In this document: positions 2,052 through 11,635 of the stretch, piece by piece | Layout of the letters: every line of letters begins with the position of its first letter | How positions within the stretch are numbered: the stretch's first letter is position 1 | Source: a virus | Direction: 5' to 3' (one strand) | UHGV virus genome: UHGV-0258651 | DNA length: 11,755 nt | Translations under genes and position numbers: made by a program | The notes under the pieces: model-generated | Told to the model about the DNA's origin: nothing | The model's database searches: none | What the model saw: the letters and a program-made list of their open reading frames with translations, nothing else

Positions 2052-4895
2052 TCAATCTTTATCGTAAAAACTGCCACGTCCGGCACGGGCGCGCCGTTCC
2101 ATCTCTGCCCTGACCATTTCGCCGACCAGTTTCGCCAGTTCGCGGGGATTCTGTGTAACAACGTTATGCAGATGAACATGAATTTCACCACCAAATCCGG
2201 AGGCAACAGACTCCCGGTTACGGGAAGTTACAGGAACTGATGCCACTGGAGATCGTATAGCCTCCGCCACCGGGCGGGAGCTGGCCGCAACAACAGGGAC
2301 CAGCGCCGGAGGCAGCGGAGCCGGGACCACGGGTGTGATATTAATTGCGGGGGCAGGCTTACTGACCTGCGCAATCTTCCGCTCCTGCCACTCCCCACGA
2401 ACAGCAAGTGCTCGGGGCAGGTTTTTAAAGACAATATCGCCGGGGCCAATGCGTTTTTTCGTCTCCTCAACCAGCTTACCTGTGTTATCAGCAATTTTGC
2501 TGAGTCTGCGCAGCGTACCGGTATTGCTGTCTGTGAGCGGTTTATTGTCTTTGGGGTTATCACCTCCGGTGCCATTGCCATTTTCCACAGGCTTCGGCGG
2601 ATTGATTTTCGCCAGGTCCCCCTGAAGCAAGGCAACCTTGTCCTGAAGAATGGCCGCACGCTGTGCGTCTTCGATTTTCTTGCGCGCCCTTTCCGCTTCA
2701 TCCGGAAGCACACCAAGCTTTTCAAGTATCCACGCCAGCGTATCCAGCAACATTTTTGCAGGTGTCAGAACAAGTTGTAACGCACCGCCAAGAACGTTAC
2801 CGAATATCTCGCCAGCACTGGTACATTTATCCAGAGTTTCCTTGCTGGACTCCATCGGTGACAGCAGCGATTTAAACCAGTTAAACACCTGGCTGATCCC
2901 ACTCCCGATTGCGTCAAAAACAGGACCAAACCGTTCAAAGGTTTCGCGCAACGGGGTCAGCCTTTCCATAATCCCGCTGAACACCCCGGCAAAAAATGCC
3001 CTGATGGGATCCCAGTATTTCCAGATAAGAACGGCAGCTCCGGCAAGCGCAGCCACGATAAGACCAACCGGACTGAACAGCGCCCCGATAGCGCCTCCCA
3101 GTAAAGAAACGGAACCCGTCACCATTCCCCATAGTGCTGGCAGAACCCTGACAGCATTCATTGATCCGGTCAGGAGGGAAAAACCAAGACGCAGTTTTGC
3201 CAGCGGGCCAGCAAGCACACCAATAGCCAGCGACAACGAGCCAACCGTTGCAGTCATTGCCAGCAGTGCACCGCCTGCAATCAGTAGCTGGCGCGTCAGT
3301 GCGGGATGGGCCTGCGCCAGCGCCGTCACCTTTGATACCACACGCGTGAGCCACTGCGTGACAGAACGCAGCGGACCGTCAATCAGATCTGCAATGCGGA
3401 TGCGCAACCCTTCCCATGCACTGCCGAGTGATTTCAGATCGCCGTCAAGGTTGTTGGCCATAACCTTTGCTGTGCGTTCAGCCTCACCGCGTGCGCCTTC
3501 AAGTTCTTTTCTCAGTTTAGGTAAGGAACCGTCACCCGCTGCATCAACGAGCGCCATAAACGATGTGAAAGCCTCTTCTCCGGCAATGTCCTTAAAGAAC
3601 GATACCCGGTCAACTTCCCCGTATTTGCGGGTGGCTTTATAAAGGTCGGCCAGCACATTCTCCATCGGGCGCATTTTGCCGTTCGCGTCAGAGACTGCCA
3701 CACCAAGCTCTTTCAGCGCCTCTGCTGCCGCCTTTGGCGGTGATGCCAGACGAGCCAGGCTGGCACGCATTGCCGTCCCGGCATCACTTCCCCTGATACC
3801 CATATTCGCCAGCACGCCCGCCATCGCTGCGGCCTGCTCCAGCGATATTCCCAGCTTGCCCGCCACCGGACCTGCATATTTCATGGTTTCGCCCAGTGCG
3901 CGAAGGTCAGTGTTGGTACGGGTAAACGCTGCGGTGAGCGTGTCACCGACCCGGTCCATCTGGTCGGCAGAAAGGCCGAACTGCGTCAGGATGTTTGAGC
4001 CAATATCCGCCGTCTCGCCGAGATCCATACCGCCAGCCGTTGCCATGCTCAGCACACCGGGAAGCGCAGCCTGAATGGCCTGTGGTGTGAAGCCAGCCAT
4101 TGCAAGAAATGCCTGCCCACTGGCGGCATCGCCTGCGGCGAACTGCGTTTCAGAGCCAAGTTTTAACGCCTGCTCACGCAGCGCCTTAAACTGCGGGCTG
4201 TTTTTGTCGATTCGCGTCAGTGCCTGAACGCGGGACATCTCTTTCCCGAACCCGATCGCAGGCTGCAAAAAACGCCCGGCAGCATAGCCGCCAGCCGCTG
4301 CCGCACCAATTGCCAGCGCACCACCTGTTTTCAGTTTTCCTGCTGTTTCCTGCGCGCGCGAATACCGCTCACGCGCCCGCGTTACACGCGCAAGCGCCTG
4401 CCGTTCGCGTTCAAGCTGGTTGTTGTACTGTTCGGTGCGTCTGATGGCCTGCTGGATGGTGTTATCGCTGCCTGTCAGGGAAATGCCGTGGCGTTTCAGC
4501 TCTCCGCCAAGTTCCCGCATTTTCTGAATTTCCCGTGTGCGCGATTCATTCAGGCGTTCAAGCCGGGTGCTTAACTGCTGCATCAGCTTTTGTTGTTTTT
4601 CGCTGAGCACTGTACCCGTGCGTTGTAACTGATTAAGGGCGTTAAGCTGGCGTCGTGCTTTCACGATGCCCGCATCCGCTTTACTGACAGCGTCACGGGC
4701 GCGCTCAAATGAACGCGCCTGACGCTCGAGATTTTTGATCGCCCCCTGCGTTCGCTGGATGGAGTCACCAAACTGCCCCATCAGGCGGCGGGCGTTTTCG
4801 GCAGGCCGGGTCAGCCTGTCAACGGCGCTGAAAGCGACCCGGATATCAAGAGTCTTCATTGTCTGCATTCCCGCTGCGAAGTGCCGCCCGCTCAC
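2052..4895 (-). CDS. T: tail tape measure protein (P2 gpT-like)
   Basis: 947-aa ORF, coiled-coil/Ala-Gly-rich with central hydrophobic segments (GGALAIGAAAAGGYAAG...), located between E/E' and U as in P2. The track start at 4895 is GTG; in-frame ATGs at 4868 and 4859 are more likely starts. The E' extension overlaps this start. Confidence 0.85.
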   Translation of the reverse strand: MSGRHFAAGMQTMKTLDIRVAFSAVDRLTRPAENARRLMGQFGDSIQRTQGAIKNLERQARSFERARDAVSKADAGIVKARRQLNALNQLQRTGTVLSEKQQKLMQQLSTRLERLNESRTREIQKMRELGGELKRHGISLTGSDNTIQQAIRRTEQYNNQLERERQALARVTRARERYSRAQETAGKLKTGGALAIGAAAAGGYAAGRFLQPAIGFGKEMSRVQALTRIDKNSPQFKALREQALKLGSETQFAAGDAASGQAFLAMAGFTPQAIQAALPGVLSMATAGGMDLGETADIGSNILTQFGLSADQMDRVGDTLTAAFTRTNTDLRALGETMKYAGPVAGKLGISLEQAAAMAGVLANMGIRGSDAGTAMRASLARLASPPKAAAEALKELGVAVSDANGKMRPMENVLADLYKATRKYGEVDRVSFFKDIAGEEAFTSFMALVDAAGDGSLPKLRKELEGARGEAERTAKVMANNLDGDLKSLGSAWEGLRIRIADLIDGPLRSVTQWLTRVVSKVTALAQAHPALTRQLLIAGGALLAMTATVGSLSLAIGVLAGPLAKLRLGFSLLTGSMNAVRVLPALWGMVTGSVSLLGGAIGALFSPVGLIVAALAGAAVLIWKYWDPIRAFFAGVFSGIMERLTPLRETFERFGPVFDAIGSGISQVFNWFKSLLSPMESSKETLDKCTSAGEIFGNVLGGALQLVLTPAKMLLDTLAWILEKLGVLPDEAERARKKIEDAQRAAILQDKVALLQGDLAKINPPKPVENGNGTGGDNPKDNKPLTDSNTGTLRRLSKIADNTGKLVEETKKRIGPGDIVFKNLPRALAVRGEWQERKIAQVSKPAPAINITPVVPAPLPPALVPVVAASSRPVAEAIRSPVASVPVTSRNRESVASGFGGEIHVHLHNVVTQNPRELAKLVGEMVRAEMERRARAGRGSFYDKD

Positions 4896-5429: not shown

Positions 5430-5942
5430 TCAGCCAAGCCCGAGCGCGGAACGGATGCGATCGGGCACAATGTCCTTGCCGTCCTTCCGGTAAATGAAGT
5501 TCAGCAGGTCAATCTCCCACAACGGGCGATCGTTAACACTCAGCTTGTAGTAGGTGTTTTTAATGGCGTAAGTGTGTGATGTGGCTTCGCCCTGTTTGGC
5601 TTCCCCCATATCAATTTCCGTCACACGTCCGCGCATTTCGACTTCATACAGGTCGCTTTCTGCATCGGTGTAGTATTCACCCGCAAAACGCAGCAGCGTG
5701 CCGTCAATCGTGCCGCCATACTTAAGGAACAGCTCACGAACTGCGCCCCCCATGACAAAGCTCGCATCAAGCGCGGAGTCGTCCAGACCGAGATCAATAC
5801 TTACCGCTCCCATCATGCCACCACCCCGGTAGCTGTCGGTTTTGCGCGTCAGCTTAGGCAGAGTGACGGACGTCACCTTACCCACTTCGTTTTCACCATC
5901 CACAAACAGCGTAAAAAAGCGAAGATGTTTTGGTACAGCCAT
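5430..5942 (-). CDS. FII: tail tube protein (P2 gpFII-like)
   Basis: 170-aa ORF (P2 FII is about 172 aa) immediately downstream of the sheath gene. Its start ATG overlaps the FI stop (TGATG at 5944..5940), indicating translational coupling; GGGAGG SD upstream. Confidence 0.9.
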   Translation of the reverse strand: MAVPKHLRFFTLFVDGENEVGKVTSVTLPKLTRKTDSYRGGGMMGAVSIDLGLDDSALDASFVMGGAVRELFLKYGGTIDGTLLRFAGEYYTDAESDLYEVEMRGRVTEIDMGEAKQGEATSHTYAIKNTYYKLSVNDRPLWEIDLLNFIYRKDGKDIVPDRIRSALGLG

Positions 5943-7126
5943 CAGGCACCTCCCAGCACCGCAAATGCGGGACCAAAGAATTCATCAGTAAACGACTGGT
6001 AAAGCTCCATGTCTTCCAGCGGGGGAACAGGCGTATATTTGTAGCGAATACGCACGCGCCCCTGACGTAAATTCGTGGTGCCGTTATCCACCACGTCATA
6101 CCAGCACGACGCCCCAATCAGTTTCCCGGCAGTAACCAGTGAATCCAGTTTTGCCCTGATAGCACTGATAACATCCTTCACGTTCGCAGGCGTCAGTGGA
6201 CTGTCGATGGTTTCAAACTGCGCTTCCGCAATTGAATCAGCCAGCACCTGTGCGGTTCGGGTATACACCTCAAAGATGTAGGCGTTCGTTTCCGGTGTGC
6301 GGTTGCCCCAGAAGCGGAACCCGTTGCGACGAATAATGGTCGTGATTTCTTTGTTGTTGAGGCTGTTGGCATCACTGTCTTCGGCCTGCAACGACCAGAA
6401 CACATGCCTGGACATCCCCAGCACATTTTTAACCGGAACGTTGGACAGCGATTTGTGCCAGCCCTGCTCATGGTCAATGTACGCACGAAGGCCGCACGCA
6501 TAGGCAGGCGCGGGGAACGTTTCGTTTTTGCCACTTTTCGGGTTGTAGGCGATGAAGTCCGGCCATAAGAGCATCACCTCACGTTCGTTGAATTTCTGGC
6601 GGTAGGTAATTGCCTCAGCCATCGTGTTACAGTCATGACATGAGGCATACACAAACGCGCGCAGTTTACCCGCAATCACGCACAGGGATTTTGTCACCGC
6701 CTCCGTGTCCAGCTCCGGCGCGGCCAGAATACGCGGACGGTATCCGATGCTTTCATCCTGCTCTGCAACAAGCAGCGCATACATCCCCGTATAGCTGCCG
6801 TCATCCTCAGAACCACCGATAACCAGTTGATCCTGCGTCTTACCGCCTTCTTCTTTGTGTTCAGCCACGCGAACGACGATCACTTTTGTGCTCACCTGGT
6901 CTGCGATAGCCTTAAGCGCACGATAAAGCGTCCCCGTAGTCCCGCATTTTCCCAGCACGTCATTGACGCGGGTCAGCAGTGTGGGCTTGTTCAGCGGGAA
7001 CAGCTCCGCATCCGCATCATCCGCCGTTGCCACGATACCGATAACGCTGGAATCAACATCATTAATCGCTGTTACCAGGTCGGTACTTTCCGTGACACGG
7101 GCACCATGAAAACGAGTTTCACTCAT
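5942..7126 (-). CDS. FI: contractile tail sheath protein (P2 gpFI-like)
   Basis: 394-aa ORF (P2 FI is about 396 aa), sheath-like sequence, AAGGGG SD about 8 nt upstream of ATG at 7126. Followed by tube, chaperone and tape measure genes in canonical order. Confidence 0.9.
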   Translation of the reverse strand: MSETRFHGARVTESTDLVTAINDVDSSVIGIVATADDADAELFPLNKPTLLTRVNDVLGKCGTTGTLYRALKAIADQVSTKVIVVRVAEHKEEGGKTQDQLVIGGSEDDGSYTGMYALLVAEQDESIGYRPRILAAPELDTEAVTKSLCVIAGKLRAFVYASCHDCNTMAEAITYRQKFNEREVMLLWPDFIAYNPKSGKNETFPAPAYACGLRAYIDHEQGWHKSLSNVPVKNVLGMSRHVFWSLQAEDSDANSLNNKEITTIIRRNGFRFWGNRTPETNAYIFEVYTRTAQVLADSIAEAQFETIDSPLTPANVKDVISAIRAKLDSLVTAGKLIGASCWYDVVDNGTTNLRQGRVRIRYKYTPVPPLEDMELYQSFTDEFFGPAFAVLGGA

Positions 7127-7282
7127 AGCTTCAGCCCCTTGTATCCGTTAAATGATTCGGCAACAATCATCACCCACCACGCGCGTAATCTCACCCCTGC
7201 GCCGTTCTCCCGCCACGGCGACAACAAAAAGCAGTAACCCACTCCGCACGCACATGCGACCATGCCGCACAGGGAGGGAAAG

Positions 7283-8392
7283 ATGACCAACACCACCATG
7301 CAATTGCTCAGTCAGGGCACAGACCCCGTGAAAATGCCGGATTTTGATATTCTCGCGGAGGGGGAAACGCTGTCCGGCGTGGCAGAGCGCCTGATGAGTC
7401 TGTCACTGACCGACAACCGGGGATTTGAAGCGGACCAGCTCACCATCACGCTGGATGATGCGGATGGTCAGTTGCAGCTACCGCCACGGGGCGCGCGCCT
7501 GACGGTTCTCATTGGCTGGAAAGGCGAACCGCTGACAGAAAAAGGCACTTACATTGTTGATGAAATCGCTCACGAAGGACCGCCGGACAGGCTGACGGTT
7601 TCAGCCAGAAGCGCAGATTTTCGGGATGAATTTAACGTTAAACGTGAGGTGTCCTGGCATGATGTGACCGTTGAGCGAGTGGTATCCGCCATCGCTCATC
7701 GGTACGGTCTGAAACCGCAAATCAGCGAAATGCTGATGGACATCGAAATCGACCACGCCGACCAGACCGAAGAAAGTGACATGTCCTTCCTTACGCGCAT
7801 GGCGGAAATGCTGGGCGCAATCACCACGGTAAAAAGCGGCAATCTGTTATTCATCATGCCAGGTGGTGGCGTGAACGCACAGGGCCAGCCGTTGCCCTCG
7901 TTCGCCATTACACGCAGCAGCGGCGATCGCCATCAGTTCCGCATTGCTGACCGCGAGGCGTATACGGGGGTACGCGCCTACTGGCTTGATCTTAATTACG
8001 GGAAAAAGAAAAAAGTCAGCGTGAAACGCCGCAAACCGCCAAAACCCAAAAAGGAGAAAAGCAGCAGCCGTGAAGGTGATTATATGGAAGGCGCGGAAGG
8101 CAATGTGTTTGTGTTACGCAAGACTTATCAGAACGAGCAGGCAGCAAGACGCGCAGCGGCGGCAAAGTGGCAGCAGCTACAACGCGGAGCCGCATCATTC
8201 TCCATCACGCTGGCGCGTGGACGTGCAGAACTCTACCCCGAAATGCATGGCACGGTAACAGGATTTAAAAGCGAGATTGATAATCAGGACTGGATCATTG
8301 CAAAAGCCGAGCACACCATTGATAACAGCGGCTTTACCACGCAGCTTGAGCTTGAGGCAAAAATCCCGGAATGGATAGCGGAAACAGAGTGA
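7283..8392 (+). CDS. D: tail protein gpD (P2 late control gene D family)
   Basis: The ORF track starts at 7262, but a strong SD (GGGAGGG, 7272-7278) precedes the in-frame ATG at 7283 (MTNTTMQLL...). Product of about 370 aa with gpD-like sequence (LTITLDDADGQL..., C-terminal ...FTTQLELEAKIPEWI), and ogr follows directly as in P2. Confidence 0.8.
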   Translation: MTNTTMQLLSQGTDPVKMPDFDILAEGETLSGVAERLMSLSLTDNRGFEADQLTITLDDADGQLQLPPRGARLTVLIGWKGEPLTEKGTYIVDEIAHEGPPDRLTVSARSADFRDEFNVKREVSWHDVTVERVVSAIAHRYGLKPQISEMLMDIEIDHADQTEESDMSFLTRMAEMLGAITTVKSGNLLFIMPGGGVNAQGQPLPSFAITRSSGDRHQFRIADREAYTGVRAYWLDLNYGKKKKVSVKRRKPPKPKKEKSSSREGDYMEGAEGNVFVLRKTYQNEQAARRAAAAKWQQLQRGAASFSITLARGRAELYPEMHGTVTGFKSEIDNQDWIIAKAEHTIDNSGFTTQLELEAKIPEWIAETE

Positions 8393-8434
8393 GCAACTTA
8401 GAATAGCGGCAGCACCACGTTAAGGGAGGTCGCT

Positions 8435-8695
8435 ATGTTCCGTTGTCCGCTTTGTGGCGCATCTGCCCGTATCCGCACCAGTCGTCCGGAAAATGATTCA
8501 AACACTGTGCGACAAAAGTATTACCAGTGTAACAATCTGGAATGCGGCGTATGCTTCTCAACACTGGAAGCTTTCCATAAATTCACATCAAAACACGCCT
8601 CCGGCGTTCACTCTTCAGAAGGTATCCCGTGGCATGATCTGCCAGCTTCACACAGGGGAAACAATCAGATGAGTTTGCCTTTATCTCAGAATTAA
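8435..8695 (+). CDS. ogr: Ogr/Delta-family zinc-finger late transcription activator
   Basis: 86-aa ORF starting MFRCPLCGASARIRTSR...YYQCNNLECGVCF, a C-x2-C...C-x4-C zinc finger closely matching P2 Ogr (MFHCPLCQHAAHARTSR...). AAGGGAGG SD upstream; positioned immediately after D. Confidence 0.85.
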   Translation: MFRCPLCGASARIRTSRPENDSNTVRQKYYQCNNLECGVCFSTLEAFHKFTSKHASGVHSSEGIPWHDLPASHRGNNQMSLPLSQN

Positions 8696-8886
8696 CAGGC
8701 AGAATTGCCGGAGTAACAAAAAAGCGATAGATTACGCGCGGGTGCCTTTCGGCTGATGGTCGGAGGGAATACCCGAAGGCCAGATGTGGAAAGGCCCCGG
8801 AAAACATTTCTGTTTAACCGAGGCCCTAACATATCTACCTTAAGCAAGTGATAGGTTAGCGCCTCTCCAACAAAGGAGCAAGCGCT

Positions 8887-9027
8887 ATGTCGCAAAAATC
8901 GCTTACAGCCATCACATTCTGCGTGACGGTAATCCTCATCATCTGGATGCTGCACGGTTCGCTGTGCGAAATACGGATGAGCTTCTGGGGAGCGGAGTTT
9001 GCGGCGTTCTTACAGTGTAAGCAGTAA
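8887..9027 (+). CDS. Hok/Gef-family type I toxin (small membrane peptide)
   Basis: 46-aa ORF absent from the ORF track (below its size cutoff): MSQKSLTAITFCVTVILIIWMLHGSLCEIRMSFWGAEFAAFLQCKQ. It has a single hydrophobic helix followed by SLCEIR...AAFL.CK, matching HokA-type toxins (recalled HokA: ...FTWMIRDSLCELHIKQESYELAAFLACKLKE). AGGAG SD 8 nt upstream of the ATG. Confidence 0.7.
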   Translation: MSQKSLTAITFCVTVILIIWMLHGSLCEIRMSFWGAEFAAFLQCKQ

Positions 9028-9053
9028 GGAAACCGCGACGGGGAAGGCAACTT

Positions 9054-9072
9054 CCCCGTCAATCGGTTGCCA
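9054..9072. repeat. direct repeat copy A (CCCCGTCAATCGGTTGCCA), within about 45 bp of imperfect similarity
   Basis: 19-nt perfect match to 11221-11239. Flanking sequence is also similar (GAAGG.AAC.. upstream, CGAGGTCG downstream). Copy A is preceded by a 7-bp stem with GCAA tetraloop (9040-9057). Confidence 0.9.
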
Positions 9073-9116
9073 GGCGAGGTCGAAAAGGCACCCTATTCTC
9101 GCAGTCATGGACAAAC

Positions 9117-9151
9117 AAACCCGCAGCGTAAAAACTGCGGGTTTTCTTTTT
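9117..9151. terminator. rho-independent terminator, likely bidirectional
   Basis: aaa-CCCGCAG-cgtaaaaa-CTGCGGG-ttttcttttt: a 7-bp GC-rich stem with an A-run before and a T-run after, about 90 nt downstream of the hok-like stop. Confidence 0.6.
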
Positions 9152-9175
9152 GTTACCCTCATACGCGAGGGTAAC
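9152..9175. other. perfect 9-bp-stem hairpin (GTTACCCTC-atacgc-GAGGGTAAC)
   Basis: Perfect inverted repeat seen directly, immediately after the terminator. Function unknown. Confidence 0.5.
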
Positions 9176-9389
9176 ACTCAAAGTGAGGCAATATGTAGGC
9201 AACGGTTTTATTTAACACATAAAAATCAATGCATTAAATGGATATTTACTAGCATGGGTACTGGCTTAAAATATCACAACCCTGTTTTATAACGTACTGA
9301 ATTTATTAGGTGTGACGGTTTTCCAATGGGGCTTCCGACATTACGTTCAGCTGATGCTTTTCTTATGTAACGAGAAGACATATATTGGT

Positions 9390-9421
9390 AAGCGATGAAG
9401 CGATGAAGCGATGAAGCGATG
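9390..9421. repeat. tandem octamer repeat, 4 perfect copies of AAGCGATG
   Basis: aagcgatg x4 at 9390-9397, 9398-9405, 9406-9413 and 9414-9421, lying 98-129 nt upstream of the ATPase gene start. Confidence 0.95.
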
Positions 9422-9440
9422 AAACGTCTGTTTGGTTATA

Positions 9441-9485
9441 AACTTCACACTAATAATTTCTAAATGAAATTATTAGTGTGAAGTT
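9441..9485. promoter_or_regulatory. perfect palindrome (20-bp arms, 5-bp spacer), candidate operator or 5'-UTR structure of the ATPase gene
   Basis: AACTTCACACTAATAATTTC-taaat-GAAATTATTAGTGTGAAGTT; the arms are exact reverse complements. It ends 33 nt upstream of ATG 9519. The palindrome is certain; the regulatory role is inferred. Confidence 0.5.
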
Positions 9486-9518
9486 GATGTTTATTGTGAT
9501 TATAACTAAGGAATTAAA

Positions 9519-10988
9519 ATGAAATTATCTCCAGCAGAATTGAAGTTAGAAAGGGGTAAGGTTCAAGATAATAAATTCAATCAATATGTTAAACGTATCA
9601 CATTAAAAAATGTCAGAGGGTTTGATGAGGAAATTGTGGAGTTTAAAACACCAGTTACAGCTCTTATCGGGACTAATGGTGGAGGGAAGTCGACTATATT
9701 AGGTGCTGTAGCTCTCGCTTATAAAAATGTTAAGCCAAGCAAGTTTTTCCCTAAATCATTTTATGGGGATGATTCAATGAGTGATTGGGAAATTGGATTC
9801 GAATTGACTGACAAGCCTATTTCAAAAGATAAAAATATTAACAGGACTGCAAAATTTAAACAGATGAAATGGCGCAGAGATAATTTCCCAGAGCGAAATG
9901 TTGTATATGTAGAAATACAAAGAACTGTTCCTGCAGGCGAACTAACTAAGTTTAATAAATTTTTATCTGGCGATGCTAAACAATTTGAAGAAAAAAATCT
10001 CAACCCTGAGACAATAAAATATTGCTCTGCCGTTTTAGATAAAAAGATAGAAGATTACAGATGTATAATAAATAAGCACGATCCATCTTCAAGAATGTTT
10101 GTAGGTAAGGCAATTAATGGTTCTGGTTATTCTCAGTTCCATTTTGGTGCAGGTGAAGCATCAATAATAGATACTATTGATAGAATAGAGACTGCTGCTG
10201 ATAATTCTCTTGTTTTAATTGAAGAAATTGAAAATGGACTGCATCCTGTTGCAGTGCGGTTGTTTGTTAACTATTTGACAAATGTAGCAAAGAGGAAAAA
10301 GCTGCAAATAATATTTACAACACATTCGCAGGATGCAGTAAACGAGCTAGAGCCAGAAGCTGTTTGGGCTTCTATTAACAAAAAAGTATGGAATGGCAAA
10401 CTAAGTATTGAAAGTTTACGCGCTATAACGGGGCAGAAGATAAATTCGAAAGTTATATATGTTGAAGATTCTTTTGCAAAAGAGTGGGTTGAAAATGCGA
10501 TGGATCGATATATTCCAGAACTAGCCTCAACAATAAAAGTCTACACGGCAGGTGGTTACCCCAGCGTGGTTAAAGTAAGTCAATATCATAATGAGAACCC
10601 TACTATAAATTATCCATCAATCGCATTAGTTGATGGGGATATTAAAGGTAGACCCGGAACTAAAGATCTGCCTGATAATGCAATGTTCATCGGGGATGAT
10701 TATCCTGACGCTACGGTTTTTCATTATATTGCAAATAACATAGAAGAAAATGCCTCAGTTTTGAGGCAAAGATGTTTGTTAACAAGATTTGACGCTGAAA
10801 AGATTAAATCGGAAGTTGAGAGTGTGATGCATTCTGCATGTGATCACCATGTTTATTTTACTAGATTAAGTGATAAATTAGATTTTGCCTCAGAACTATT
10901 CATTCGGGCTGGTATGATAGATTTATTTAATGAGAAAAATCCAGAATTTTGGTCCCCAATTATGGACTTCATTAAAAAAGGTCTATAG
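9519..10988 (+). CDS. ABC-type (SMC/RecF/OLD-like) ATPase fused to a Toprim-like domain; candidate OLD/PARIS-like defence nuclease
   Basis: 489-aa ORF with AAGGA SD 6 nt upstream. Walker A GTNGGGKST (aa 51-59), Walker B/D-loop LVLIEEIENGLHP, H-loop IFTTHS. The C-terminal half has VIYVEDSF and IALVDGDIKG, acidic motifs typical of a Toprim fold. AT-rich, with its own upstream palindrome and downstream terminator. Confidence 0.6.
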   Translation: MKLSPAELKLERGKVQDNKFNQYVKRITLKNVRGFDEEIVEFKTPVTALIGTNGGGKSTILGAVALAYKNVKPSKFFPKSFYGDDSMSDWEIGFELTDKPISKDKNINRTAKFKQMKWRRDNFPERNVVYVEIQRTVPAGELTKFNKFLSGDAKQFEEKNLNPETIKYCSAVLDKKIEDYRCIINKHDPSSRMFVGKAINGSGYSQFHFGAGEASIIDTIDRIETAADNSLVLIEEIENGLHPVAVRLFVNYLTNVAKRKKLQIIFTTHSQDAVNELEPEAVWASINKKVWNGKLSIESLRAITGQKINSKVIYVEDSFAKEWVENAMDRYIPELASTIKVYTAGGYPSVVKVSQYHNENPTINYPSIALVDGDIKGRPGTKDLPDNAMFIGDDYPDATVFHYIANNIEENASVLRQRCLLTRFDAEKIKSEVESVMHSACDHHVYFTRLSDKLDFASELFIRAGMIDLFNEKNPEFWSPIMDFIKKGL

Positions 10989-11053
10989 TAATAATGCAAA
11001 AATATAATATTTAGTTTGCGATTTATATTTTTCATAATGAATTGTTGAGAAAA

Positions 11054-11090
11054 TAAGAGAGCATCGAAAATTGAGGCTCTCTTATTTTTA
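11054..11090 (+). terminator. rho-independent terminator of the ATPase gene
   Basis: TAAGAGAGC-atcgaaaattgag-GCTCTCTTA followed by TTTTTA: a 9-bp stem plus T-run, 66 nt after the stop at 10988. Confidence 0.6.
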
Positions 11091-11148
11091 TGAGATATCT
11101 CTAATGTATTAATCGTTTTATTTTGGCGCTACCACCACTGATGCTAAC

Positions 11149-11535
11149 TTGTCGATCAGACATTCGCACTATTCAATATCTTTTAGGCTCCGCAATGAAA
11201 ACGCCCCCGAAGGAACAATCCCCCGTCAATCGGTTGCCAAAGGCCATTTAGGTAAATCGCCTTCGAGGTCGTTCGATGGCTGCATGACGTTCCCGGTTAT
11301 CCCGTCAAAGAAAATGCACTCGACCGGAAAACCAGAAGAACTAATGGCGGAGTTGCTCAGGACTGCGAATAGTGGCGGAACAGTCCTTGATCCTTTTATG
11401 GGGCCAGGGACAACGGGTGTGGCTGCACTGAAAGCAGGGCGAAAATTTATTGGTATAGAAACCAGTGATCATTATTTTGAGGTAGCAGCGCAGCGGCTTC
11501 GGGGGACTATTACCACAACCATTTCAGCTACATAA
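11149..11535 (+). pseudogene. DNA methyltransferase (beta-class N6A/N4C type) 3' fragment, 5'-truncated
   Basis: The C-terminal roughly 75 aa of the 128-aa ORF read HSTGKPEELMAELLRTANSGGTVLDPFMGPGTTGVAALKAGRKFIGIETSDHYFEVAAQRL, the conserved end (H-x-T-x-KP ... DPF.G.GTT, motif I) of PF01555-type methylases. The catalytic DPPY motif and the preceding roughly 180 aa expected upstream are absent; the upstream sequence is AT-rich and non-coding. Confidence 0.5.
11221..11239. repeat. direct repeat copy B (CCCCGTCAATCGGTTGCCA)
   Basis: 19-nt perfect match to 9054-9072. It sits at the 5' junction of the methyltransferase remnant. Confidence 0.9.
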
Positions 11536-11562: not shown

Positions 11563-11635
11563 TGTCTATCATTACTGATGTGGACAGTTTGTGGATGTTT
11601 ATAAGAAATAAGCTAATAGAAACAATTTGTTAGCT

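Follow-up and report, generated by a model that had tools for sequence, protein, structure and literature searches.

What do four perfect tandem octamers and a long perfect palindrome do in front of an accessory ATPase gene, and do they need a regulator to do it? Both elements lie within 100 nt of each other in an 11,755-nt stretch of viral DNA (UHGV-0258651; hereafter the window, meaning the whole stretch that was analysed). An earlier note on this DNA had described them together as an unusually ordered regulatory region. We compared the locus with other copies of the same gene cassette, with a sister lineage and with more distant homologues, and asked which of the possible roles agrees with the number, the distribution and the predicted folding of the two elements.

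The array, the palindrome and their surroundings

The octamer array consists of four perfect AAGCGATG units at 9390-9421 on the plus strand, and both TRF and a repeat search confirmed the four perfect tandem copies that had been reported before. TRF describes the AAGCGATG array as a repeat of period 8 with 4.2 copies and 100% matches over 9390-9423, which includes a partial fifth unit. The octamer dimer occurs three times in the window, in overlapping positions that all lie inside the array, against an expectation of 0.01 from 200 shuffles. A spacer of 19 nt (9422-9440, plus strand), whose first base is A or T depending on the allele (ATGAAACG versus ATGTAACG), connects the array to a perfect palindrome at 9441-9485, with two arms of 20 nt each (9441-9460 and 9466-9485) and the loop TAAAT (9461-9465). 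The arms are 100% complementary and can be extended to 23 nt (9438-9488) at 96% complementarity; G-C accounts for just 5 of the 20 pairs of the stem, and the stem base is A-U-rich. The RNA of a 55-nt segment that holds the palindrome folds at -27.0 kcal/mol, compared with -5.25 ± 2.08 kcal/mol for its shuffles (z = -10.5; 0 of 200 shuffles equal). The distance to the ATG at 9519 is 33 nt from the end of the palindrome and 97 nt from the end of the array, without an intervening ORF. The 45-bp length of the palindrome, its position 19 nt past the array and its distance of 33 nt from the start codon were thus all given correctly by the earlier note. The Shine-Dalgarno sequence AAGGA (9508-9512, plus strand) is located 6 nt upstream of the ATG, and an in-frame TAA at 9507-9509 leaves no room for an N-terminal extension of the ATPase ORF into the repeats.

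The array and the palindrome are each far above chance expectation. Of the ordered regulatory region proposed before, the order itself is therefore real, being non-random far beyond chance, and it is the reading as a binding array for a trans-acting regulator that the evidence given below does not support. In addition, the 12-nt string AAATGAAATTAT is exactly duplicated, once at 9462-9473 in the loop and right arm and once at 9517-9528 at the true start. This duplication is borderline against chance; it may be a trace of a templated origin of the palindrome or a coincidence in AT-rich DNA.

The gene behind the two elements (9519-10988, plus strand) encodes a protein of 489 aa that carries the Pfam ATPase domains AAA_15/AAA_21, so the two elements do stand upstream of an accessory ATPase gene, as had been claimed. 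PADLOC assigns it to HEC-04 (PDLC04149; E = 1.8e-203), with protein residues 2-488 covering positions 5-488 of the 494-position profile. The Walker A segment G51-T59 (GTNGGGKST) and the acidic TOPRIM residues E316, D372, and D374 do not vary among the 24 homologues in our alignment A3 and match the residues mutated in the HEC-04 study (10.1101/2024.01.29.577857). Judged from these features, the gene is an intact full-length member of the family of HEC-04/IbfA-type ABC ATPase-TOPRIM nucleases. HEC-04 is an ABC-ATPase-TOPRIM fusion that defends against T4 and T5 and is toxic when induced (10.1101/2024.01.29.577857), and this toxicity on induction makes dosage control plausible. IbfA of IncI-type plasmids has been reported as a HEC-04 homologue (PMC12111858). 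A term search of the HEC-04 paper (10.1101/2024.01.29.577857) and the IbfA paper (PMC12111858) found no upstream repeat or palindrome, and our literature search found no OLD-like defence nuclease with a non-coding control that is tuned by repeats.

The window covers that end of a P88-like (P2-family) prophage which lies towards attR. The minus strand carries tail genes, namely a gpU-like gene (1551-2045) and the genes for the tape measure (2052-4895), the tube (5430-5942), and the sheath (5942-7126), and the plus strand continues with gpD (7262-8392) and Ogr (8435-8695; Pfam Ogr_Delta). They are followed by a hok/sok-type type I toxin-antitoxin locus (8740-9144), in which the hok CDS (8887-9027) precedes GC-rich hairpins; the Rfam match to sok at 8740-8897 has 47.9 bits, below the gathering score of 59. 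A strong canonical terminator at 9117-9144 lies after hok and upstream of the leader. Megablast matches of 8400-9151 point to P88-like phages, among them Xuanwuvirus P88 and Chuche. Together with the ATPase gene, the leader forms a low-GC mobile cassette at 9178-11148 on the plus strand; the GC fraction falls to 0.32-0.37 between about 9200 and 11100. Mapped against five other loci (L001-L005), its left boundary falls at 9117 or 9178 depending on the neighbour, and its right side abuts a truncated methyltransferase, the C-terminal fragment of an N6/N4 DNA methyltransferase (11149-11535) downstream of the ATPase gene. The upstream neighbour of the cassette differs by genome and is either hok, a YafO toxin-antitoxin pair, or Com with a full methyltransferase. 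The closely related prophage L069, which has a length of 37 kb, is situated between pheA/pheL and raiA.

Several side observations concern these surroundings. Within the methyltransferase fragment, 11239-11498 shares 90% identity with the 3' end of the complete methyltransferase gene that is linked to Com in P88-like phages. Some genomes have both the complete gene and the fragment, placed as direct repeats on either side of the ATPase cassette (2107-2898 and 5027-5358 in L002/L004), which suggests an insertion or replacement by recombination there. The segment 11539-11597, just before raiA, consists of a terminator hairpin AAAGCCCGCATTTTTTTGCGGGCTT and then ATGTGGACAGTTTGTGGATG; the latter, with Int arm-type motifs at ~11578-11597, is similar to Int arm sites of the TGTGGAC type that follow the methyltransferase in phage Chuche, and the region is probably the attR arm of the prophage. 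The ATPase cassette and the methyltransferase fragment stand beside raiA behind two different P2-family prophages, of which one is P88-like with hok upstream (the window, L003, and L069) and the other has a different tail module and the YafO toxin-antitoxin pair (L001, L005, L076, and L077). Since it occurs on two phage backbones, the cassette persists or moves independently of either.

At the other end of the window, a low-GC (0.30-0.38) ORF of 412 aa (216-1454) with a weak match to glycosyltransferase family 9 comes immediately after tail gene U. L069 is otherwise similar but has an invertase and tail-fibre genes in place of this ORF, which is probably another moron or a host-flank gene. Furthermore, a module of ~270 bp with 9-10 copies of TGTGA[CT]GG or its complement in both orientations was observed in L006 (2886-3152), in L007/L008 (2050-2320), in L075, and in phage ESSI2_ev239 (L078, 666-722). 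The TGTGA[CT]GG module precedes different cargo (ATPase or O-acetyltransferase) near attP/int in Evevirus-like P2-family phages, and the window retains only a remnant of it at 9265-9322 (ATATCACAACC...GGTGTGACGGTTTT). The module looks like an array of sites for a DNA-binding protein or a recombination module at the moron hotspot.

Variation in repeat number and distribution among relatives

In 21 other cassette copies with near-identical flanks, the array has 5 to 15 units, and the array of four in the window is the shortest. Unit counts were read directly in 19 loci, the window included: 4 units in the window; 5 in L023; 7 in L001, L027, and L028; 8 in L003; 9 in L004, L011, L018, L020, and L026; 10 in L021, L022, and L025; 11 in L005 (8 plus three AAGAGATG); 13 in L002 and in L019, the latter with one internal AAACGATG; 14 in L017, where the last unit is AAACGATG; and 15 in L024. 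The copy-number spectrum of these 19 loci is broad and unimodal-looking, without obvious preferred classes. The flanks of the alleles with 4-15 units differ by 0-4 SNPs per ~1.8 kb, and a single haplotype, with at most 2 SNPs relative to the window over ~1770 nt, comprises arrays of 4, 5, 8, 9, 9, 10, 10, 10, and 15 units. A 311-nt query found full-length matches in 17 of 5,426 complete E. coli genomes, and the matched lengths of 335, 343, 351, 367, and 383 nt equal 311 plus multiples of 8. The clonal isolates ETEC1717 and ETEC1718 have 0 mismatches across 40.3 kb around the locus; one octamer (7 versus 8 units) and one single-base gap are their sole differences in this interval.

The array is a hypermutable repeat that mutates orders of magnitude faster than its surroundings. 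A tract that changes far faster than its flanks bears the signature of slipped-strand mispairing, and the multiplication of variant units (the three AAGAGATG in L005 and the internal AAACGATG in L019) fits slippage as well. The octamers had been taken for an iterated protein-binding array, and this claim is contradicted by the range of 4-15 units, by the change within a clone, and by the 8-bp period, which is out of helical phase; protein sites in a fixed array should not vary four-fold in number at such a period. Iterons are characterized by a set number, helical phasing, and conservation in relatives, none of which was found for the octamers. What we found instead are two features of a contingency locus, namely a perfect short head-to-tail repeat with a copy number that outpaces its flanks, even within clones. 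Even if neutral, the tract is a very fast marker, which separates isolates that are identical across 40 kb.

The palindrome is invariant in all E. coli cassette copies and lies at a constant 19 nt past the array. It is unchanged even in an allele with 17-18 SNPs across the 200 nt upstream, but the overall divergence among alleles is too low for this invariance to prove constraint.

The sister lineage, represented by IMG/VR and metagenome contigs (L007-L010 and L075), encodes an ATPase that is 93% identical in protein. Its leader can be aligned from GTGACGGTTTTCC through ...TATCTTGGT and then again from CTAAGG to the ATG. The alignments delimit a shared leader or promoter-proximal block (GTGTGACGGTTTTCC...TATATTGGT) at 9311-9389 on the plus strand, and the Shine-Dalgarno block CTAAGGnAnTAAAATG is conserved too. 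Where the array would be expected, the sister lineage has just one degenerate AAGAG(T/A)GAAA(A)TGATG (AAGAGTGAAATGATG), and AAGAGTGAAATGATG is a plausible proto-repeat. The palindrome is absent from the sister lineage, where the longest perfect inverted repeat within 350 nt upstream of the starts has 6-7 nt, and the leader RNA there folds no better than its shuffles (z = -0.5 and 0.0). In pairwise alignment, the sister sequence at the palindrome position is diverged, with 14/20 identities in the right arm and ~10/17 in the left arm. We infer that one arm was probably overwritten by the complement of the other via template switching.

A contig search with alignment A3 recovered 37 loci, while a single-protein query recovered none. 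The distant set includes four enterobacterial homologues (73-78% identity) and 29 more distant loci from genome collections. Upstream of 35 more distant homologous loci, we found neither a tandem array nor a start-adjacent inverted repeat comparable to the palindrome; the best other stems, present in four loci, are GC-rich, have 10-14 nt, and lie 83 to 264 nt upstream. An apparent leader homology around TTGGTAAG..GATG in L015 (78% protein identity) was rejected, as its local-alignment score of 23 is that of unrelated upstream regions (21-24). The sister lineage and the other homologues do without both elements, which are therefore dispensable for the gene and not a trait of the gene family. 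On these comparisons, both elements are young and linked in cis, and they belong to a single allele of a mobile defence cassette. An origin as a dispersed repeat or a mobile-element end was also rejected: the 311-nt query matches only this locus in the 5,426 E. coli genomes, apart from the separate 57-nt module at 9265-9321, and nothing was found in plasmids or phages.

Promoter, leader RNA and the search for a regulator

The consensus and PWM scan of the upstream region gave a promoter candidate at 9245-9272 (TTTACT-16-TAAAAT), a weak promoter-like TTTTCT-17-TATATT at 9358-9386 on the plus strand (PWM score 5.2), from which the start would fall at about the first octamer, and a promoter-like TTCACA-18-TGaAATTAT inside the palindrome (score 6.6), at 9444-9473 on the plus strand and mirrored at 9482-9453 on the minus strand. 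With scores of 5.2-6.7, the sigma-70 candidates do not reach the median of the best scores from shuffles, and a placement of the promoter by this approach was rejected, with a best window score of 6.7 against the shuffle median best of 8.15.

We modelled the leader RNA at several repeat numbers, on the assumption that the array is transcribed. At all of these repeat numbers, the hairpin is paired with a probability of 0.99. Under this assumption, the Shine-Dalgarno sequence is predicted to become more accessible, its unpaired probability increasing from 0.5 without repeats (n=0) to 0.9 at n>=7, and that of the AUG likewise increases from ~0.5 to 0.9. Such a shift in accessibility with repeat number is a weak effect in silico. 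At 20 bp, a perfect RNA helix has the length that a substrate of RNase III requires; the predicted helix of the palindrome has 20 uninterrupted bp at -27 kcal/mol, compared with the approximately two helical turns (at least 20 bp) by which RNase III substrates are recognized. A terminator scan lists the palindrome hairpin followed by GATGTTTATT, with an interrupted T-run and a stem that is AT-rich at its base, and the extended stem of 23 nt is followed by G-UUUAUU. In Rfam 15, no match overlaps 9390-9485 at E <= 1, the nearest being sok at 8740-8897 together with weak chance-level matches, and the assignment of the array or the palindrome to a known RNA family was rejected.

Phase variation by frameshift was likewise discarded: the octamers supply a TGA in each of the plus-strand frames, and the TAA at 9507-9509 precedes the ATG. 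No ORF of at least 50 aa crosses the array and palindrome region on either strand. Read as RNA, the plus-strand octamers form AUG-AAG-CGA-UGA mini-ORFs, in which each stop overlaps the next AUG, and the last AUG of the array opens a uORF of 14 codons (9419-9463; MKRLFGYKLHTNNF and its stop) that terminates in the hairpin loop. This uORF does not encode a conserved leader peptide, as an A-to-T change in the spacer makes its codon 2 TAA in one haplotype (L001, L005, L027, and L028); being unconserved, it is probably not essential. A hairpin with the repeats as one of its arms, as in hmw1A, was rejected as well, since a segment that could pair with the array is missing from the cassette.

The statement in the earlier note that no repressor gene is evident nearby agrees with our annotation, in which the cassette has no other ORF with a DNA-binding domain. 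With no regulator in the cassette and neighbours that vary, any regulator would therefore be encoded in trans. The additional suggestion that such an external regulator would allow infection to trigger expression is unsupported speculation, as no pointer to an infection-responsive regulator was found. The 20-nt half-site, searched with up to 5 mismatches, has only one further match in L069 or the window, a chance-level one with 5 mismatches, and its 12-nt inner and outer parts, searched with up to 2 mismatches, have none beyond chance level in either sequence. The octamer dimer has no other copy in L069, including the int-repressor-cox control region. An operator shared with the prophage immunity region was rejected on the lack of additional half-sites in L069, and a late promoter of the Ogr/P2 type on the lack of a TGT-N12-ACA dyad in 9100-9530. 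A dimeric operator would be accompanied by a nearby regulator or by extra sites and would be conserved in orthologues; for the palindrome, none of these was found. The large 5' hairpin that had been offered as one role of the palindrome is energetically plausible, while the dimeric operator offered as the other lacks further half-sites and is absent in relatives.

Competing explanations and known systems

We tentatively prefer, at a probability that we place slightly under even, a lineage-specific leader in which slipped-strand changes and the -27 kcal/mol hairpin would tune the expression of the toxic defence gene. The array would expand and contract by slipped-strand mispairing, and the palindrome, if transcribed, would fold into a leader hairpin of 20 bp and -27 kcal/mol. 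Acting in cis, the array and the hairpin would set the level of the toxic ABC-ATPase-TOPRIM nuclease in the lysogen. Changes in repeat number would then produce heritable and reversible differences in level between strains, and possibly between cells, which would amount to the behaviour of a rheostat or contingency locus without sites for a trans-acting regulator. Such a rheostat would agree with the unstable copy number, also between clonal isolates, with the multiplied variant units and the proto-repeat of the sister lineage, with the stability of the hairpin, with the weak predicted gain in accessibility, with the toxicity of HEC-04, and with the exclusion of frameshifting; the documented precedent of hmw1A, with a non-triplet repeat and a leader hairpin (PMC12721329), speaks for it by analogy. 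Against it, the relatives dispense with both elements, the copy numbers fall into no obvious preferred classes, the sigma-70 candidates score no better than shuffles, and nothing in the transcript could pair with the repeats. Moreover, mismatch repair is proficient in E. coli, a species in which neutral variable-number tandem repeats are frequent and few proven contingency loci of the repeat-driven kind are known. It is an unlikely further proposal that the locus is a contingency switch or rheostat for an abortive-infection-type nuclease, with slippage making lysogen subpopulations that have different HEC-04 levels. The adjacent palindrome or RNA hairpin would then possibly promote slippage during replication, and clonal E. 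coli would hedge the cost of autoimmunity against protection from phages.

Nearly as likely as the rheostat leader, at a probability clearly short of even, is that both elements are neutral by-products: a proto-repeat expanded by slippage and a quasi-palindrome perfected by template switching, in AT-rich acquired non-coding DNA. Both features occur in one shallow lineage and are missing from the sister, which has an intact gene, and from 35 other homologues; copy numbers vary broadly, with a distribution that looks unimodal; the right arm is nearer to the sister (14/20) than the left (~10/17), which fits the overwriting of one arm; and signals of promoters or binding sites do not exceed background. 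This neutral origin is harder to reconcile with a palindrome that is perfect and unchanged in every allele, though divergence is too low to prove constraint, and with a hairpin that ends 33 nt before a toxic gene, where an effect on the fate of the mRNA is likely if it is transcribed. Whether tuned or neutral, the octamers look like a mutational dial of expression or a by-product, and not like conserved protein-binding sites.

Two other explanations give the palindrome a role of its own and are both improbable. The one that we consider least probable makes it a high-affinity operator for a dimeric repressor encoded elsewhere and the octamers sites for that protein or a different one, with expression freed on infection. 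The dyad symmetry is perfect, repression of a toxic gene is sensible, and the promoter-like TTCACA-18-TGaAATTAT inside the palindrome, although a non-significant match, could be occluded by a bound dimer. Nevertheless, 20 perfect bp per arm far exceed what a protein half-site needs and point to nucleic-acid pairing or a recent duplication, the array has no fixed length (4-15 units) and an 8-bp period that is out of helical phase, and neither the half-site nor the octamer has another copy in the 37-kb L069, its int-repressor-cox region included. The cassette also has no regulator gene and no Ogr-type TGT-N12-ACA dyad, and neither element is found in any orthologous or homologous locus. Only marginally more credible is a palindrome that works without any regulator, as a symmetric bidirectional promoter or as a weak intrinsic terminator or insulator against read-through from upstream prophage genes, with the octamers irrelevant. 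The mirror-image promoter-like matches at 9444-9473 (plus) and 9482-9453 (minus) would suit the promoter, and the listing of the hairpin with GATGTTTATT by the terminator scan and the G-UUUAUU after the 23-nt stem would suit the terminator. The promoter score, in turn, is under the median best of the shuffles; the AT-rich stem base and the interrupted U-tract are atypical of efficient intrinsic terminators; a strong canonical terminator is already present upstream at 9117-9144; and the sister lineage has no equivalent element.

If repeat number does tune the gene, as in the rheostat leader that we prefer, a prophage-borne defence would be heritably heterogeneous within E. coli clones. This would affect the outcomes of phage therapy, measurements of defence cost, and the scoring of defence 'presence' from genomes, since the same gene could be expressed at different doses. 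A true switch would be the first repeat-driven non-coding control of phase or dosage for an OLD-like ATPase-TOPRIM defence gene, located in an E. coli prophage moron. As a caution that applies more widely, a striking, 'ordered' upstream region need not bind a regulator.

The gene itself resembles HEC-04 and IbfA in its full-length profile match, its combination of an ABC ATPase and TOPRIM, and its conserved Walker A and acidic residues, but it occupies an attR-proximal moron site in P2-family prophages beside raiA and not the Hma system or an IncI plasmid. As for the repeats, neutral variable-number tandem repeat loci serve the multi-locus repeat typing of E. coli. The octamers are similar to them as a short perfect repeat with a copy number that differs among close strains, whereas their position in front of a toxic defence gene and beside a perfect palindrome invites a functional reading. 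In phase-variable restriction-modification systems (phasevarions), repeats make the expression of a defence stochastic (PMC7383803). Those repeats are intragenic and act by frameshift, in contrast to the octamer array, which is non-coding and in which stops exclude a frameshift.

Two systems with repeats upstream of the gene are closer. In the case of N. meningitidis nadA, a TAAA tract lies between distal promoter elements and the NadR operators, and its repeat number alters spacing and expression (PMC2791445). By analogy, the nadA TAAA tract would be the nearest model for a DNA-level version of the octamer effect. Both loci have a repeat tract near dyad-type elements, upstream of the core promoter in nadA, but nadA has the cognate repressor NadR and its operators, and no regulator or second operator was found here. 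In H. influenzae hmw1A and hmw2A, the 5'-UTR contains a heptanucleotide tract, (ATCTTTC)n, and a hairpin that is processed by RNase III, and the expression of hmw1A is graded by repeat number (PMC12721329; PMC8262952). The heptamer tract and 5'-UTR hairpin of hmw1A would be the closest documented mechanism to the octamer leader, since both loci combine a non-triplet repeat upstream of the ORF, a copy number that varies by isolate, and a long stable hairpin nearby. In hmw1A, the repeats form the left arm of the hairpin, whereas the octamers pair with no other segment, and a separate palindrome makes the hairpin. Moreover, the locus described here has an 8-nt unit in 4-15 copies in front of a prophage defence nuclease of E. 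coli. Variable tandem repeats and repeat-driven control of expression are kinds already known; if the octamer leader is functional, the host and the gene class would be unusual for them, and control by a repeat plus a leader hairpin would extend from surface genes of Haemophilus and Neisseria to enterobacterial anti-phage nucleases.
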